DNA from: Escherichia phage vB_EcoM-ZQ3
Strand: one strand, 5' to 3'
DNA: 64,000 nucleotides
Sequence record: MW630116.1
Positions 29,960-55,290 of this stretch are shown piece after piece (the stretch's first letter is position 1; every line of letters begins with the position of its first letter). The translations under genes and the position numbers were made by a program. The notes under the pieces were generated by a model, which saw nothing but the letters and a program-made list of their open reading frames with translations, did not search any database and was not told the origin of the DNA.

Positions 29960-31691
29960 ACCCGACATCCACACGGCTACCATCAATTGTGTATTGTCCT
30001 GAAGCTACTGAGCTCATTGTAGACATTGTTTCCGCCCAATCCCCAGCAACAGTCATATCAACATTACCATTAACAGTCCATTTAACGTTTCCGTTGACTG
30101 TGTAATCATGATTCCCTTCGACCTGAGTTTTAGCATCGCCTTTAACAAGAATATCTGCATTTCCGTCAACAACTATTTTGATATTACCCTTAACGTAAAG
30201 AGTTCCATCGCCTTCAACAGTTTTAGATTGGTTACCACGAATAAAGATTGTATCATTGCCGTCTATTTGATGGAGGCGGTCTGCCATGTTATAATATATT
30301 TCATTAGCACCAACGTTAACAAGCTTATCGCCAGAAATCAAGAAGTTCCCATCGCCATTAGTGATGTCAAAAAGGTCTTCTACAGTTTTACGAGTACGTC
30401 GCCCAGACGGAGAAACTTCCTCATATGACCCTGTTGGATGAACTAAGCGATAACGTTCATTACCTGGAGTATCGTCAAATTCTTGGATATGACCGCTTTC
30501 TGTTTCCATAGCATGAACGTATGGATACTCACCACGATAACTTGATTCAGGTTCTTTAAAAAGGATACGTGAATCTAACGGAACAGGAGGACCAGCTGGG
30601 TCTTCTGGATCGGTATTTCTAGTAACTAAATCGGCACCAACTCCTGGTGAAGGTGGTGTTTTAACAGGAACGCCATATGATTCCATGTTACCGGTTAAAA
30701 TAATTGTTGTTACACGTGAAGCACGCCCTTTAGTCTGTTGGAACCATAATGAATCACGTCCGGATTTGTATGCGGTTTTCCAATCACCTGTGGCCATTGC
30801 TTTAAGCATAGTATTGAATTTTGCTACACCACCAACGCCCATCTGGAAGCACATGTTTTCTAATGCCATTTGGCGAGATCTGTTCATTTTAGCATAAACA
30901 GGACCTACTTTAGAATTAGAACGAATGTCTTTCTGCATCTTAGCAAGGTCCTTCTCAAATAACGCTGTTGCTTCTTCTAATGTAATAGTTCCCGGATTTC
31001 CTGTTACTTCACGCCCTACTTGATCAGATAACAATTTATTAATTCGAGACATATCTCGGGTTTTTTCCATTACTATAAGATGTCCAATACCTACTGTAGG
31101 ATACCCGAGATGGTCCCAATACACTTTATCACGAAGACCTTCGTCACGACGTAACATTTCTGTTATTGTAAAATTAGGGTCATCATCTTCTGGAATATTT
31201 GCTAAATCTGTATCGTCTGGGTTTATACCATAATCCAAGTTGTTATCTTGAATTACGTTAGAGTTCGAATAATAACCAGCTTCACCACCTTGGTTTAGTA
31301 CGTTCGTATCATTACCTAAACGTCGCGGATACTGGCCTGTCGGGTCTGAAAAACCTTCAAGTCTATTAGGCTTTTCACGTACTATTCCGCCATATGTACC
31401 AAGTACAATCCCGTTTGTTTTCCATTTGTCTAAGAAATGACCATATACTCGAGTTCCTTCAACAGGACCTGTAACAGAACCACCAATACCTGACATTGAT
31501 GCAGACGTAATAGGTTGAATAACAGTCATCCATGGAAGTTTTTCTGTAGGAATACCTTGTACATCACCTTGTGTTCTCTGCGCCGGATGAAGACCAACGA
31601 CTCGAACTCGAACTCGCCCTTGTTTTAATGGGTCCATTCTGTCCTCGACAACACCCACGAACCAATTAAGGCTACTGCTAATCATTTCCAT
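29955..31691 (-). CDS. 5: baseplate hub subunit and tail lysozyme gp5
   Basis: 578 aa; central lysozyme domain (LRRDEGLRDKVYWD...GIGHLI) and C-terminal beta-helix VxGxxxxxV repeats. Confidence 0.95.
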   Translation of the reverse strand: MEMISSSLNWFVGVVEDRMDPLKQGRVRVRVVGLHPAQRTQGDVQGIPTEKLPWMTVIQPITSASMSGIGGSVTGPVEGTRVYGHFLDKWKTNGIVLGTYGGIVREKPNRLEGFSDPTGQYPRRLGNDTNVLNQGGEAGYYSNSNVIQDNNLDYGINPDDTDLANIPEDDDPNFTITEMLRRDEGLRDKVYWDHLGYPTVGIGHLIVMEKTRDMSRINKLLSDQVGREVTGNPGTITLEEATALFEKDLAKMQKDIRSNSKVGPVYAKMNRSRQMALENMCFQMGVGGVAKFNTMLKAMATGDWKTAYKSGRDSLWFQQTKGRASRVTTIILTGNMESYGVPVKTPPSPGVGADLVTRNTDPEDPAGPPVPLDSRILFKEPESSYRGEYPYVHAMETESGHIQEFDDTPGNERYRLVHPTGSYEEVSPSGRRTRKTVEDLFDITNGDGNFLISGDKLVNVGANEIYYNMADRLHQIDGNDTIFIRGNQSKTVEGDGTLYVKGNIKIVVDGNADILVKGDAKTQVEGNHDYTVNGNVKWTVNGNVDMTVAGDWAETMSTMSSVASGQYTIDGSRVDVGL

Positions 31692-47808: not shown

Positions 47809-48297
47809 ATGAATATATTTGAAATGCTTCGTAATGACGAAGGTCTTAGACTGACTTTATACAAAGACACCGAAGGCTTTTGGACGATTGGCATAGGCCA
47901 TTTAGTAACAAAGAACCCGTCTTTAGCCGTAGCTAAAGCTGAACTTGACAGAATGATCGGTCGTAAATGCAACGGTACAATTACCCTTGATGAGGCTGAA
48001 AAGCTATTTAATGAAGACGTTGATAAAGCCGTTCGCGGAATCTTGGGTAATGCTAAACTTAAACCGGTATATGATTCTTTAGATGCAGTTCGTCGATGTG
48101 CATTGGTCAATATGGTCTTCCAAATGGGTGTAGCAGGCGTCGCAGGTTTTACTAATTCTCTTCGTATGCTTCAACAGAAACGTTGGGATGAAGCGGCAGT
48201 AAATCTAGCCCAATCTAAATGGTATCGTCAGACACCTAATCGCGCGAAACGCGTAATCTCAACATTTAAAACAGGAACTTGGAAAGCGTATATATGA
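47809..48297 (+). CDS. e: lysozyme (endolysin)
   Basis: 162 aa from [31 protein letters not shown]; catalytic Glu11/Asp20/Thr26 context conserved as in T4 lysozyme. Confidence 0.95.
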
Positions 48298-50927: not shown

Positions 50928-51151
50928 TGGCTAAATTGATTATAGAAGGGTCTGAAGATGTTTTAAAATGTTTTGCCGCCTGGTTTAGTTGCTCAGGCGA
51001 GCAATCATTCATTGAAGCATTTAGAATGGGTGATATTACTGGAAACTATCCGGCAACTGATATCACTGTACGTGGATATGGTATTAATGAGCCTATCCAA
51101 TTGGTCGAATATGACCTTGCCACTGATGAGGAAATTCCTTATGTCGATTGA
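50927..51151 (+). CDS. hypothetical protein
   Basis: 74 aa; ATGA-type overlap with upstream gene. Confidence 0.45.
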   Translation: MAKLIIEGSEDVLKCFAAWFSCSGEQSFIEAFRMGDITGNYPATDITVRGYGINEPIQLVEYDLATDEEIPYVD

Positions 51152-51407
51152 AGATATTAAAGGCTACAAGCCACATACCGACGATAAAATCGGTAAAGTG
51201 AACGCTATTAAAGATGCAGAAGTCCGTCTTGGATTGTTGTTTGATGCTCTGATTGAAGAAGCATATATCTTGAAAGAAAATGAAACAGAGCAACAAACCA
51301 AAGAAGATATGGATGCAGTACAGGCTCTTAAGTATGCTAAGCAACATCTAAAAGAAGCCAGCATGTGGGCCTGTCGTGCAGTATTTCGACCTGAGGAAAA
51401 ATACTAA
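51141..51407 (+). CDS. hypothetical protein
   Basis: 88 aa from [10 protein letters not shown]; longer alternative-frame ORF start rejected. Confidence 0.45.
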
Positions 51408-51706
51408 TGGCTCAAATCCTATCAGGCTTTGGAACTCATTATGAATCATCTAGACGCATAACTGAAAGCAATCCTTTTGGCCTTGTTCCGAAGCACAAAA
51501 AAATTCAAAGCCTTGATGACTTTGAGAACCGCCTATGGGCCCTCTTTAATGAGTACAAGGCATATCTGAAAGAAGACGCTGACGATTGTCTTGAAGAAGA
51601 TGAGATTGCGTATTACGAACAACGCCTTGAACAGCTCAAGAACTTCCACCAGGTTCGTGACGAAGTATCTAAAGCAGTTAAAAAGTTAATTCCTTTCAAA
51701 GAGTAG
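51407..51706 (+). CDS. hypothetical protein
   Basis: 99 aa, acidic helical. Confidence 0.5.
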
Positions 51707-51745
51707 TTTACTTCTCCTCTAGATGTGTTACTATAGACCTGTCAA
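51706..51745 (+). promoter_or_regulatory. early promoter cassette with anti-SD arm
   Basis: GTTTAC-N17-TACTAT; CTCCTCTAG (51714-51722) is perfectly complementary to CTAGAGGAG (51746-51754) containing the SD. Confidence 0.5.
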
Positions 51746-51762
51746 CTAGAGGAGAAATCAAA

Positions 51763-52221
51763 ATGACTATCAATTCAGACGTTTTTATCCGCCGCAATAA
51801 ACTCCGTCGAATCTTTGAAACGGAGTTCCGCAAAATAAATGCCAGTATAAAAGATGCTGCAAAGTCTCTTGGACTACCAGGCTTTCATATCAAGTATTCT
51901 CAACATCTCTTAGATCGTGCCATCCAGAGAGAAATAGATGAGAACTACGTTTTTGAATTATTTCGTAAAGTAAAAAATCATGTTAAAGAAGTTGCAGAAT
52001 TTTTATCAATGCCGGCACGTCCGGATGTTGATGAAGATTTTGTCGAAGGCGTCGAATATCGCCCAGGCCGTTTAGAAATAACTGATGGAAATCTTTGGTT
52101 AGGACTTACAGTTTGTCGCGAAAATCCAGCATTCAAAATGAAGACTCTTCAATGCAGAATGGCTATTATTAACAGTAAACGACTACCAGGAAAAGCTTCT
52201 AAAGCAGTGATTAAAATCTAG
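51763..52221 (+). CDS. regB: RegB-like site-specific endoribonuclease
   Basis: 152 aa; N-terminus MTINSDVFIRRNKLRR and C-terminus RLPGKASKAVIK as recalled for T4 RegB; position between denV and tk. Confidence 0.6.
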   Translation: MTINSDVFIRRNKLRRIFETEFRKINASIKDAAKSLGLPGFHIKYSQHLLDRAIQREIDENYVFELFRKVKNHVKEVAEFLSMPARPDVDEDFVEGVEYRPGRLEITDGNLWLGLTVCRENPAFKMKTLQCRMAIINSKRLPGKASKAVIKI

Positions 52222-52229
52222 AGGTAAAC

Positions 52230-52772
52230 ATGAGAAAAGCACTACTCGCTGGTCTATTTGCTCTTTCATTATCAGCACATAGCTCCGAGCATACTTTTAG
52301 TAATGTCCAACTCGATAACTTGAATTATGCTTATCAGTTTGGGGAACAGTTTTCTAAGGACGGAAAATTTAAAACGCATGAAAATATGCATAAGAAAGGA
52401 CTTGGATACATAATGGCCGCAATACTATGGCAGGAATCATCTGCTGGTATTAATCTTAAAGATAAGAAAGGTCACCATGCGTATGGAATGTTCCAAAATT
52501 ATCTACCAACAATGAGGGCAAGAATTAACCAGCTTGGTTATAATATGTCTGATGCCCAAATTAAGAAAATGCTATCTAAGCGGTCTAATTCAGCCAGATG
52601 GGCTTATATCGAATTTTCTTATTGGTTAAATATACATAACGGGGATATAAGAAAAGCTATATCCTCATATAATGCGGGATGGAAGACAAGTGCTGGAAGT
52701 AAATATGCTTCTGAAGTCCTAGAAAAGGCTAATTACCTTAAATCAAATAAACTACTGGAAATAAAAGAATGA
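52230..52772 (+). CDS. secreted lytic transglycosylase-like protein (SLT domain)
   Basis: 180 aa; signal peptide; SLT motifs ILWQESS, YGMFQ, SYNAGW. Confidence 0.6.
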   Translation: MRKALLAGLFALSLSAHSSEHTFSNVQLDNLNYAYQFGEQFSKDGKFKTHENMHKKGLGYIMAAILWQESSAGINLKDKKGHHAYGMFQNYLPTMRARINQLGYNMSDAQIKKMLSKRSNSARWAYIEFSYWLNIHNGDIRKAISSYNAGWKTSAGSKYASEVLEKANYLKSNKLLEIKE

Positions 52773-53116
52773 CCAAAATGTTGGCTTTAATAGTTGGCTT
52801 GGTTTCATTTAACGCTCTTGCTAATACTACATATACTGATGTAACGGAGTATACAAACAGAACAGCGTCTGATTATTGTGGTAAAAGTCAAGAGTGTAAA
52901 GTAGATTTTTCACAAAAATTGTTATATGCGTATAAAGACGGAGAAAAAGATGGGGCGTCTAGTAGGTTCAAGGCGTCTACCTTAATTAAAAGATACTATA
53001 AAAAATGGCAAATATTAGAATGCTCGGTGGCGGAACCTAAAGATAAGGCAGCATGCAATTCTATGGTGGACCGTCTAGTTGACTCTTATACTAGAGGACT
53101 TGCAGCAAGTGATTAA
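52769..53116 (+). CDS. secreted protein
   Basis: 115 aa; signal peptide MTKMLALIVGLVSFNALA; four Cys. Confidence 0.5.
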   Translation: MTKMLALIVGLVSFNALANTTYTDVTEYTNRTASDYCGKSQECKVDFSQKLLYAYKDGEKDGASSRFKASTLIKRYYKKWQILECSVAEPKDKAACNSMVDRLVDSYTRGLAASD

Positions 53117-53576
53117 AAACTATATCAAGGGCGATATTGTCGCCCTGTTTTCTAAAGGTAATAATATTGCTCATGGGTGTAATTGTTTTCATACAATGGG
53201 CGCCGGTGTGGCAGGACAATTAGCAAAGGCTTATCCAAAAATTCTAGAAGCCGATAAACTTCAAACCGAATTCGGAGACGAGTCTAAACTCGGGACTTAT
53301 TCGGTTTATGAAAAATATTTTAAGACCCACAAAGCTTATTGCTTTAATCTTTATACGCAGTTTGAGCCGGGACCTAATTTTGAGTACTCTGCTTTAATGA
53401 ATTGTATAATAGAATTAAATAAATTCGGAAAGAATAAGATAACAAAGCCTGTAATTTATATGCCAAGAATTGGTGCAGGTATCGGTGGTGGAAACTGGGA
53501 CGTCATCGAAGAGATTTTAGATACGTATTCCACTAAACTAGAAATTGTGATTGTTGATTGGGAACCATTATTATGA
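53109..53576 (+). CDS. macro domain protein (ADP-ribose binding/hydrolase fold)
   Basis: about 155 aa, GTG start inferred from RBS spacing; motifs IAHGCNC..MGAGVAGQL and PRIGAGIGGG match macro-domain signatures. Confidence 0.7.
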   Translation: MIKNYIKGDIVALFSKGNNIAHGCNCFHTMGAGVAGQLAKAYPKILEADKLQTEFGDESKLGTYSVYEKYFKTHKAYCFNLYTQFEPGPNFEYSALMNCIIELNKFGKNKITKPVIYMPRIGAGIGGGNWDVIEEILDTYSTKLEIVIVDWEPLL

Positions 53577-53785
53577 ATATACATTATCCACATCCATATG
53601 ACCCAAAGAATAAGGCAGTAATTATTCGTCAATGGGAACGCATTTGTCGTACCAAATGTCCAATTAATAGTCCACATGATGTAGATAAAGACTACATCGG
53701 AACATTCGTTGAATATACTTTTATCGATAAGAAAGGCCGTAAACAACATGTAGAAGAATATTGCTTAAAGGTGACATGGTTATGA
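53573..53785 (+). CDS. hypothetical protein
   Basis: 70 aa from MNIHYPH; ATGA overlap; Cys/His-rich. Confidence 0.45.
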   Translation: MNIHYPHPYDPKNKAVIIRQWERICRTKCPINSPHDVDKDYIGTFVEYTFIDKKGRKQHVEEYCLKVTWL

Positions 53786-53967
53786 GTTTAAGTAAAGAAC
53801 AAAAAGACAGACTGTTTTCTCTTATTCACGAAGTTATGGATAAAAATAGTGAATTGGAAAAAGTTTGCGATGAATGCGGTCCTTTTAATACCGACGAATA
53901 CGAAGAACTGTGTAAAGATTTCGACGATAAAGAACAAGAACTTATTGATTATATAAATTCCTTATGA
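53782..53967 (+). CDS. hypothetical protein
   Basis: 61 aa from MSLSKEQ; acidic. Confidence 0.45.
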   Translation: MSLSKEQKDRLFSLIHEVMDKNSELEKVCDECGPFNTDEYEELCKDFDDKEQELIDYINSL

Positions 53968-54161
53968 TTACTCGCGAACAAAAGAATGAAATACGATTTT
54001 TAATCAGCGAAATTATTAGTTTAGAACGAGATTTATCTTTTGAATTGGCTTCGGATTATGGAGATGCTGAAACATACTACGAATTAGTAAAATCTATCGA
54101 TAAAGCTGAAAATGATTTAGAAACATATTTAGAAAATTTAACTAAGGACTCTTATGGCTAG
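53964..54161 (+). CDS. hypothetical protein
   Basis: 65 aa; ATGA overlap. Confidence 0.45.
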   Translation: MITREQKNEIRFLISEIISLERDLSFELASDYGDAETYYELVKSIDKAENDLETYLENLTKDSYG

Positions 54162-54987: not shown

Positions 54988-55290
54988 ATGGCCTTAAGAG
55001 CGATAGCTGTCATGGCGATGCTGGGGTTTTTTGCAGCAACAACTCCTATCGTTGGTACTGCGTACACCGACCCATATTTTGATAACTTTATGGAATCAGG
55101 GATTAAAAACGTATATACTTTGTTTGAAATTCAAAATGTCGAGAATTCTGAAAAATTCTATAAGTATATGGCAAAGCATTACAAAAATAGCCCCTGTGAT
55201 GATGCATTTGAATGTCATGAACAAGGCATAAAAACTGCCAGACAATTTGCCGAGTTCATGAAAATAAAATTAGAGCCTACATCTATCTAA
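54988..55290 (+). CDS. rI: lysis inhibition regulator RI (antiholin)
   Basis: 100 aa; signal-anchor then DPYFDNFMESGIKNVYTLFE...CDDAFECHEQG as recalled for T4 RI. Confidence 0.85.
   Translation: MALRAIAVMAMLGFFAATTPIVGTAYTDPYFDNFMESGIKNVYTLFEIQNVENSEKFYKYMAKHYKNSPCDDAFECHEQGIKTARQFAEFMKIKLEPTSI

Follow-up and report, generated by a model that had tools for sequence, protein, structure and literature searches.

Introduction

The closest described relatives of the gene pair studied here are vs.1 and vs of bacteriophage T4. T4 Vs.1 (T4p112, UniProt P13311, phrog_600) is itself without an experimentally defined function. A similarity of six vs.1 orthologues to the SLT domain was reported as 'marginally significant' by Nolan et al. 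(2006), who also cited earlier PSI-BLAST results for T4 (PMC1524935), so that the SLT similarity of Vs.1 has been in the literature since 2006. T4 Vs (T4p111, UniProt P13310, phrog_1256, PF26829) owes its name to a T4 factor that binds the valyl-tRNA synthetase (ValRS) of the host (Müller and Marchin 1975/1977, as cited in PMC8076793), and phrog_1256 as well as hundreds of GenBank records are labelled 'valyl-tRNA synthetase modifier'. Here we describe the corresponding genes at positions 52230-53116 of a 64,000-nucleotide stretch of DNA from Escherichia phage vB_EcoM-ZQ3 (record MW630116.1; the whole stretch is referred to as the window). With a probability of about one half, vs.1 and vs would constitute a periplasmic module of two genes that are expressed from early transcripts, in which Vs.1 is an exported transglycosylase, Vs is its exported partner and the pair conditions the cell wall.

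Three groups of proteins are useful for comparison. Family-1 lytic transglycosylases and related members of glycoside hydrolase family 23 (GH23), such as Slt70 and MltD of E. coli and goose-type (g-type) lysozyme, combine a lysozyme-like helical fold with a single catalytic Glu in an E-S motif, with G-x-x-Q and Y-N-A-G motifs and with a periplasmic location. Ivy, PliC/MliC and PliG are small periplasmic binders of GH22 and GH23 enzymes; they are built mostly from beta-sheet and place a loop in the active site. Spackle of T4 (gp61.3) is made early, carries a cleaved periplasmic signal, folds into a small disulfide-bonded helical bundle and binds and inhibits the gp5 lysozyme at a ratio of 1:1 (PMC7677548).

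Results

Identity of the two genes

Mapping of the T4 proteins onto the window revealed a T4-like gene order (e, ipII, denV, vs.8 to vs.3, regB, vs.1, vs, tk.4, tk.3, tk.2, tk.1, tk, rI.1, rI). The window DNA is 98.7-99.1% identical to that of Mosigvirus-type T4 relatives such as AV117, ATK47 and phi25-307 and represents such a relative itself. An open reading frame (ORF) at 52230..52772 (plus strand) encodes a precursor of 180 aa, predicted to be an exported protein resembling lytic transglycosylases of the SLT/GH23 type. It matches phrog_600 (4.6e-67 over residues 1-178) and shares 83% identity over 178 aa with T4 Vs.1; length, signal peptide and the position between regB and vs agree as well, and we found no difference of substance between the two proteins. 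The adjoining ORF at 52769..53116 (plus strand) encodes a precursor of 115 aa, predicted to yield a small protein of four helices that is exported and has two Cys pairs. It matches phrog_1256 (5e-35) and is 67% identical to T4 Vs, with which it shares the four Cys residues, the helix SMVDRLVDSYxRGL and the position between vs.1 and tk.4; PF26829 is a precomputed Pfam assignment on close relatives of this protein. Judged by sequence and synteny, these ORFs are the orthologues of vs.1 and vs. As a genome feature the pair is ordinary, consisting of syntenic, well-conserved orthologues of two named T4 genes that were already known.

An original prediction, made from the DNA before the present analysis, had described an ORF with a signal peptide and SLT motifs followed by an ORF with a signal peptide and four Cys residues, lying between a regB-like gene and a macro-domain gene. 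These features had been seen correctly and all of them were found again. The exported character of both proteins, the SLT character of the first and their place in the early region agree with our own heuristic for signal peptides, with structure prediction and with published data on the T4 orthologues, respectively. That the genes are vs.1 and vs of T4, and that the second bears the label 'valyl-tRNA synthetase modifier', had been missed.

Signal peptides of both precursors

Signal peptides were scored by our own heuristic for n-, h- and c-regions. For Vs.1 it predicts a signal peptide of residues 1-18 (MRKALLAGLFALSLSAHS; 52230..52283, plus strand), which is composed of MRK with two basic residues, the 10-residue core LLAGLFALSL (mean Kyte-Doolittle hydropathy 2.42) and the cleavage site A-H-S/S, with SEHTF as the next residues. 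The predicted signal peptide of Vs likewise covers residues 1-18 (MTKMLALIVGLVSFNALA; 52769..52822, plus strand) and is composed of MTK, MLALIVGLV and the cleavage site A-L-A/N, followed by NTTY. By the same heuristic, signal-peptide features are present in 37 of 39 Vs.1 and 36 of 38 Vs relatives, the failures being truncated or mis-started entries. The N-terminal 20 residues vary among the relatives while their character stays the same, which is the typical behaviour of signal peptides. In models computed with AlphaFold2 (AF2) the first 20 residues of Vs.1 reach a predicted local distance difference test score (pLDDT) of 63-67, and the N-terminus of Vs has a pLDDT of about 50 and no secondary structure. 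A lipoprotein signal was considered for Vs and rejected, as the protein of the window has no Cys at the cleavage site and T4 Vs has no lipobox. For the T4 proteins the predicted mature N-terminal peptides are SEHTFSNVQLDNMR (Vs.1) and DTSYTEIR (Vs). Mature T4 Vs has a predicted amino-acid composition of A10 C4 D8 E7 F1 G3 H1 I2 K11 L6 M1 N5 Q2 R8 S7 T6 V4 W1 Y8.

From these features we infer Sec-dependent export of either precursor, with cleavage following Ser18 in Vs.1 and Ala18 in Vs. We are not the first to note the predicted export of the two proteins: in the GenBank record of Acinetobacter phage AM101 the depositors independently gave Vs.1 the label 'putative lytic murein transglycosylase, putative periplasmic secretion signal; Vs.1', the Vs homologue being labelled 'putative periplasmic secretion signal'. 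Full-length, N-terminally His-tagged T4 Vs was insoluble when produced in the cytoplasm of E. coli (PMC8076793), which is compatible with a secretory, disulfide-dependent protein and proves nothing.

Motifs and fold of Vs.1

The predicted mature form of Vs.1 has 162 aa (18.7 kDa, isoelectric point 9.6) and no Cys residue. Conservation was assessed with 39 homologues, with identities down to 40%. All three motifs of family-1 lytic transglycosylases were recognised, all on the plus strand: WQESS (motif I, aa 67-71, 52428..52442) with the putative catalytic Glu69-Ser70, GMFQN (motif II, aa 86-90, 52485..52499) and SYNAGW (motif III, aa 146-151, 52665..52682). Residues E69 and S71, G86, Q89 and N90, as well as Y147, N148 and G150 are invariant in the 39 sequences, 35 of which match Pfam SLT at E<=0.01 (best E 1.3e-07). 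The Vs.1 profile was also aligned to PDB chain sequences, which was used for motif placement only: in the alignment to g-type lysozyme (E=0.81, not significant alone) E69 falls on RES of IISRESRAG and SYNAG on SAYNAG. PliG was co-crystallised with g-type lysozyme in 4g9s, the chain best aligned to the Vs.1 motifs.

With the family alignment as input, AF2 returned a model of Vs.1 with a pLDDT of 90 and a predicted template modelling score of 0.83, in which E69 stands at the end of helix 59-70. A Foldseek search of the PDB with this model yielded lysozyme-like enzymes without exception at ranks 1-27, with probabilities up to 1.0 and template modelling scores of about 0.5. They include the GH23 chitinase of Ralstonia (3w6e), MltD (8rhi), Slt of P. 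aeruginosa and E. coli (6fcq/5ohu/1sly), phi6 lysin, GH19 chitinase, fungal muramidase and LtgA. According to the model, Vs.1 has a lysozyme-like GH23/SLT fold with intact catalytic motifs. It differs from family-1 and GH23 enzymes such as Slt70, MltD and g-type lysozyme in being very divergent (below the Pfam gathering score), phage-encoded and expressed early in infection, and in an N-terminal helix (aa 23-38, FSNVQLDNLNYAYQFG) that is conserved within its own family and specific to it. An NCBIfam search gave no match for either Vs.1 or Vs.

Cysteine residues and fold of Vs

The predicted mature form of Vs has 97 aa (11.0 kDa). Vs of the window contains exactly four Cys residues (positions 37, 43, 85 and 96), all of which are invariant in 38 homologues. 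Cys37-x5-Cys43 (52877..52897, plus strand) lies at the turn between helices 1 and 2, and the C-x5-C spacing was also found in the homologues of Acinetobacter phages that were checked. Cys85-x10-Cys96 (53021..53056, plus strand) lies at the turn between helices 3 and 4, and its spacing ranges from x8 to x15 among homologues. The C-terminal helix SMVDRLVDSYxRGL, which follows Cys96, is nearly invariant in the 38 homologues. Taken together, the conservation of the signal features, of the Vs.1 motifs and of the four Cys residues points to selection and not to chance. The AF2 model of Vs (pLDDT 86.7) contains helices 20-37, 41-64, 69-85 and 90-114, and Cys37/Cys43 flank its first turn and Cys85/Cys96 its third, where they may form two disulfides, each stapling a helical hairpin.

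A variant of 85 aa with an internal deletion occurs in Escherichia phage vB_EcoM_005 (L005:2393-2650) and in P0129. Helix 2 and the first Cys pair are missing from it, but signal peptide, second Cys pair and conserved C-terminal helix are all retained.

A fold search with the Vs model returned no informative relative, and a Pfam scan of all 38 homologues (E<=10) gave scattered chance matches only. A HMMER search with Vs over 1.84 billion representatives produced 7 matches, all of them phage-type fragments or relatives. As no cellular relatives were found, there is no function to borrow from them. Compared to the T4 proteins Vs is the faster-evolving partner (67% identity vs. 83% for Vs.1).

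Coupling of vs to vs.1 and relatives in other phages

The start codon of vs overlaps the stop codon of vs.1 in the sequence ATGA (52769..52772, plus strand), an arrangement for translational coupling. At 54 of 65 vs.1 loci from IMG/VR the vs.1 stop is followed by an abutting ORF for a secreted-type protein with four Cys residues, which starts -8 to +7 nt from this stop; two more of the 65 loci carry truncated Vs-type copies (56/65 in all). As Vs-type we counted ORFs of 85-135 aa whose N-terminus is hydrophobic and whose Cys residues follow the pattern C-x4-7-C ... C-x7-16-C. Acinetobacter T4-like phages that were not matched by our own hidden Markov model of Vs are among the 54 loci. One such Vs homologue, that of Acinetobacter phage AM101 (L007), matches phrog_1256 with 2.3e-28 and gives an hhalign probability of 87%, and in this phage Vs.1, Vs, phrog_4957, phrog_6298 and rI form a run of five genes that are all marked with secretion signals. 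The two genes between the Vs homologue and rI (L007:3285-4009) encode proteins of 141 aa (phrog_4957) and 96 aa (phrog_6298), both marked as secreted by the depositors.

By tblastn, the Vs.1 family was found in 2058 phage records. The distant phrog_600 proteins of Felixounavirus, Kuttervirus and Cronobacter phage S13 retain the signal peptide and the motifs, and their mature forms have an extra Cys close to either terminus. In Felixounavirus the Vs.1-like gene is labelled 'lysin' and adjoins rIIB, with a gene for an i-spanin lying 1.2 kb downstream, and in Cronobacter phage S13 the gene order is alc, Vs.1-like, spanin, spanin, pseT. Misnaming in public records is systematic and widespread in both families. 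Relatives of Vs.1 are called 'RegB endoribonuclease' or 'endoribonuclease', for example in Kuttervirus and Salmonella phage Marshall (L074:1408-2025), one Vs.1 is called 'leucine aminopeptidase, subunit E, domain 1', and Vs proteins are called 'valyl-tRNA synthetase', that is, the enzyme itself.

Published expression and mutant data for T4

In time-resolved omics of T4 both vs.1 and vs were classified as early at the RNA level and middle at the protein level, and both proteins were detected by mass spectrometry at similar low intensity (PMC9697503 supplement). With transcription this early, one would naturally read the data as a periplasmic role that sets in well ahead of terminal lysis.

Mutant data are available from the HIDEN-SEQ transposon study of T4 of 2025 (bioRxiv 10.1101/2025.11.20.689424), of which we used the liquid competition (Data S8; reads per TA site in lysogeny broth (LB) vs. 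M9-glucose). Both genes are non-essential on LB plates, 30 of 32 TA sites being hit in vs and 46 of 52 in vs.1. In LB liquid, insertions in vs and vs.1 amount to 26.6 and 22.6 reads per site, compared to 652 for vs.3, 265 for vs.4, 290 for tk.4, 767 for tk.3 and 179 for regB, which are flanking non-essential genes. In M9-glucose the values drop to 5.0 for vs (log2 fold change -2.19, adjusted p 0) and 11.9 for vs.1 (log2 fold change -0.87, p 0.0055, adjusted 0.155), and tk.4 is unchanged. The authors identified vs as the strongest requirement in M9-glucose, confirmed it by a clean knockout and explained it by the valyl-tRNA synthetase. The gene t and the spanin genes pseT.2/pseT.3 take essentially no insertions (same study). 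Insertions in T4 regB rise in M9-glucose from 179 to 403 reads per site (log2 fold change +1.17, p 0.049); as this trend is opposite to that of vs and vs.1, upstream insertions do not simply abolish expression of the pair.

The joint under-representation of vs and vs.1 mutants is suggestive of a common pathway. A simple toxin-antidote model, in which Vs merely neutralises a harmful Vs.1, is disfavoured, since vs.1 insertions are under-represented and not neutral. Possibly Vs has some restraining role, as vs insertions are hit harder than vs.1 insertions in minimal medium.

Neighbouring genes and transcription signals

The first gene of the unit is regB (51763..52221, plus strand), which encodes an endoribonuclease 77% identical to T4 RegB (Pfam REGB_T4, 3.1e-69) and ends 8 nt before the ATG of vs.1. 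Upstream of it, an element resembling T4 early promoters (GTTTAC, 17 nt, TACTAT; 51707..51735, plus strand) was recognised by reading the sequence for consensus matches and is the probable start of the regB-vs.1-vs transcript. The ribosome-binding site of regB (51747-51762, plus strand) includes GGAG, the motif cleaved by RegB itself, and that of vs.1 is GAGG, without GGAG.

On the other side, 12 nt beyond the stop codon of vs and within the first codons of tk.4, a terminator-like hairpin of 8 bp with 5 G-C pairs is followed by GTTTTCT (53128..53146, plus strand; RNA fold -13.8 kcal/mol, z = -2.8). This hairpin may partially terminate the regB-vs.1-vs unit or attenuate transcription after it, or else it is incidental or owed to the coding sequence. 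We rejected an alternative reading of this region, because a Rfam scan of 51000-54000 found no RNA family and the opposite-strand ORFs of the interval measure 30-52 aa only.

The vs.4 orthologue of the window (51147-51404, plus strand) is 66% identical to T4 Vs.4, which we take to be the anti-CBASS sponge Acb2. Downstream of vs, the tk.4 orthologue (53109-53576, plus strand) encodes a Macro domain (1.7e-06) and is 83% identical to T4 Tk.4. T4 Tk.4 was named AdfM in a 2025 preprint, where it was the single T4 gene needed against the DarTG2 defence and is thought to strip ADP-ribose from DNA. With Vs.4 as Acb2 and tk.4/AdfM, the early block around vs.1-vs would have at least two anti-defence genes.

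Two lysis-related genes were located by T4 protein mapping: the homologue of T4 e (47809-48291, plus strand) lies 3.9 kb upstream of the pair on the same strand, and the antiholin gene rI (54988-55290) 1.9 kb downstream. On the minus strand (30675-31166) a second stretch resembles T4 lysozyme, with 40% identity to T4 e over 164 aa; it most likely encodes the lysozyme domain of gp5, the tail-spike protein.

Discussion

A proposed periplasmic module of Vs.1 and Vs

In the proposed module an early regB-vs.1-vs transcript would give rise to both precursors, with translation of vs coupled to termination of vs.1, and both would be exported by Sec and cleaved. Periplasmic Vs.1 would then cut MurNAc-GlcNAc bonds at a low level and without hydrolysis, with Glu69 as the sole acid/base and leaving 1,6-anhydro-MurNAc ends as family-1 lytic transglycosylases do. 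Vs, oxidised to its two disulfides, would serve as a stoichiometric partner of Vs.1 that restrains, tunes or targets the activity. In this way the sacculus would be loosened and not breached before the holin fires; the module would condition the infected cell's wall, which would count most where growth is slow, and lysis itself would be left to e, t and the spanins. Both the catalysis on peptidoglycan by Vs.1 and the interaction of Vs with Vs.1 are presumed here. It is the coupling of the genes and the shared behaviour of the T4 mutants that suggest Vs as a binder or modulator of Vs.1. The purpose is the weakest step of the proposal; candidates are wall conditioning for productive infection or release in slow-growing cells, accessory lysis and defence against other phages.

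As a functional analogy for Vs, Spackle appears to be the best. No sequence or fold relationship between the two was detected, and they differ in size and bonding, Spackle having 75 aa in its mature form and one disulfide, compared to 97 aa and two Cys pairs in Vs. They differ also in the target, which for Spackle is the gp5 of an incoming phage and for Vs would be the co-expressed enzyme. Ivy, PliC/MliC and PliG bind lysozyme-like enzymes in the periplasm as proposed for Vs, but none of these inhibitors was matched by Vs in sequence and fold searches, and the all-helical Vs contrasts with their beta-sheet architecture.

A number of observations weigh against the proposed module. The accessible literature yielded no enzymatic, localisation or binding data on Vs.1 or Vs. 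For both proteins the signal peptides were scored by our heuristic and not by SignalP. Vs.1 of the window reaches 18.3 bits (E=0.0017) with Pfam SLT (PF01464), below the gathering cut-off of 21.3 bits; the Foldseek E-values are just about 1e-2; and the search with the Vs.1 profile against PDB chain sequences gave nothing significant, the best matches being a metacaspase (E=0.38) and the g-type lysozyme used above for motif placement. Aeromonas T4-like phages, Kuttervirus and Felixounavirus encode Vs.1 without Vs, so that Vs.1 is not strictly dependent on Vs; in the Aeromonas phages a predicted lipoprotein gene stands two genes downstream of vs.1 in place of Vs. The number of transposon reads per site depends on insertion bias, too. 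Binding to ValRS in the cytoplasm has been attributed to Vs (as cited in PMC8076793), and the minimal-medium-specific defect of vs fits tRNA charging or amino-acid supply at least as naturally as a role at the wall. Finally, the four Cys residues of Vs, located at two turns at the same end of the bundle, could form a Zn(Cys)4 site. Independent disulfides fit slightly better because of the variable spacing of the second pair, the variant with the second pair only and the signal peptide.

The name of Vs and its predicted location

A function on ValRS needs Vs in the cytoplasm, which is hard to square with a protein family that looks exported and disulfide-bonded; as a sequence-level prediction, Vs does not reside in the cytoplasm. 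In the accessible literature we found no paper that discusses this mismatch between the export signal and the cytoplasmic label. Three options present themselves as possibilities: the signal is unused and the label is right, the label has been put on the wrong small ORF, or the link to the synthetase is indirect.

If the label is right, Vs is the cytoplasmic tau factor that binds the valyl-tRNA synthetase of E. coli and alters properties of it such as stability and tRNA affinity, its N-terminus acts as no export signal or an inefficient one, its position next to vs.1 comes from operon packing only, and the exported transglycosylase Vs.1 has nothing to do with it. This explanation is backed by the name that phrog_1256 and the GenBank records carry and by the biochemical literature as cited in PMC8076793, and the knockout defect of vs is specific to minimal medium, in which amino acids must be made and which the authors considered consistent with the synthetase (bioRxiv 10.1101/2025.11.20.689424). 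We regard it as somewhat doubtful and do not rate it lower, because the minimal-medium phenotype fits tRNA charging so naturally. The tau factor is said to be about 10 kDa in size, which is compatible with the 11.0-kDa mature Vs but also with a processed protein. Several observations speak against a cytoplasmic factor. The full set of cleavable Sec signal features is kept in 36 of 38 homologues and in those of Acinetobacter phages although the residues themselves diverge, the four Cys residues are invariant and the deletion variant retains one pair intact. In 56 of 65 loci the start of vs is coupled to the stop of a gene for a secreted enzyme, and in AM101 the gene belongs to a run of five that annotators marked with secretion signals throughout. 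Furthermore, no paper in the accessible literature ties the factor to this ORF rather than to another small ORF of the interval, and mutants of vs.1 are under-represented like those of vs. We put forward, tentatively and at less than even odds, that the ORF labelled 'valyl-tRNA synthetase modifier' is not the tau factor but encodes a partner or regulator of the transglycosylase Vs.1 that is exported and stapled by disulfides. In that case another small ORF of the interval would account for the classical vs activity, or this activity would be indirect, and the minimal-medium defect of the T4 vs deletion would result from mis-regulated wall cutting and not from tRNA charging.

Lysis and exclusion as possible alternative roles

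Vs.1 might instead be an accessory lysis enzyme, a second secreted muralytic activity that acts together with holin, endolysin and spanins, for instance on walls that T4 lysozyme handles poorly, and that is held inactive by Vs until then. The neighbourhood of some relatives fits this: the phrog_600 gene of S13 lies directly upstream of two spanin genes, the 'lysin' of Felixounavirus stands beside rIIB with an i-spanin downstream and the AM101 block ends with rI, so that a link of the Vs.1 family to lysis or the envelope is not to be dismissed. Neighbourhood in a few lineages is weak evidence, however. In the window itself rI and e are at distances of 1.9 and 3.9 kb, and in the T4 record, too, e and rI are scattered among unrelated genes; the argument of the original prediction that the pair stands outside the lysis cassette, at a great distance from lysozyme e, is weak for this reason, and the gene contexts of the distant relatives weaken it as well. 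T4 e mutants do not lyse, which means that Vs.1 is unable to replace the endolysin. T4 vs.1 is transcribed early and its protein appears in mid-infection, not late (PMC9697503), and vs.1 and vs are non-essential on plates, whereas t and pseT.2/pseT.3 take essentially no insertions. The direct neighbours of vs.1, regB and the macro-domain gene, also differ from those of an endolysin gene in a lysis cassette. On balance, we consider accessory lysis unlikely. What the original prediction had proposed, namely a periplasmic function other than terminal lysis, is favoured by the conserved signals, the SLT fold and the early RNA, and is weakened by the spanin-adjacent relatives, which keep the link to lysis alive.

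Its more specific suggestion of superinfection exclusion found no support. The pair would here act against other phages, by altering the wall or blocking incoming tail lysozymes, and would bring about exclusion or resistance to lysis from without. Like Spackle, both proteins are early and predicted to be periplasmic, and Vs has evolved faster than Vs.1, a behaviour often shown by interface proteins in conflicts. Yet the literature consulted credits Imm and Sp with the exclusion and lysis-from-without resistance of T4, the competitions in which vs and vs.1 insertions had a fitness cost that depended on the medium did not specifically select on exclusion, and a transglycosylase would weaken the wall and not protect it. 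Such a role seems very improbable.

Implications

The main use of the present result is that the second ORF is the classical vs gene and not an anonymous Cys-containing protein, and that the name of this gene is at odds with its sequence. The minimal-medium phenotype of vs reported in 2025 would be read differently depending on whether Vs works alongside Vs.1 in the periplasm or on ValRS in the cytoplasm.

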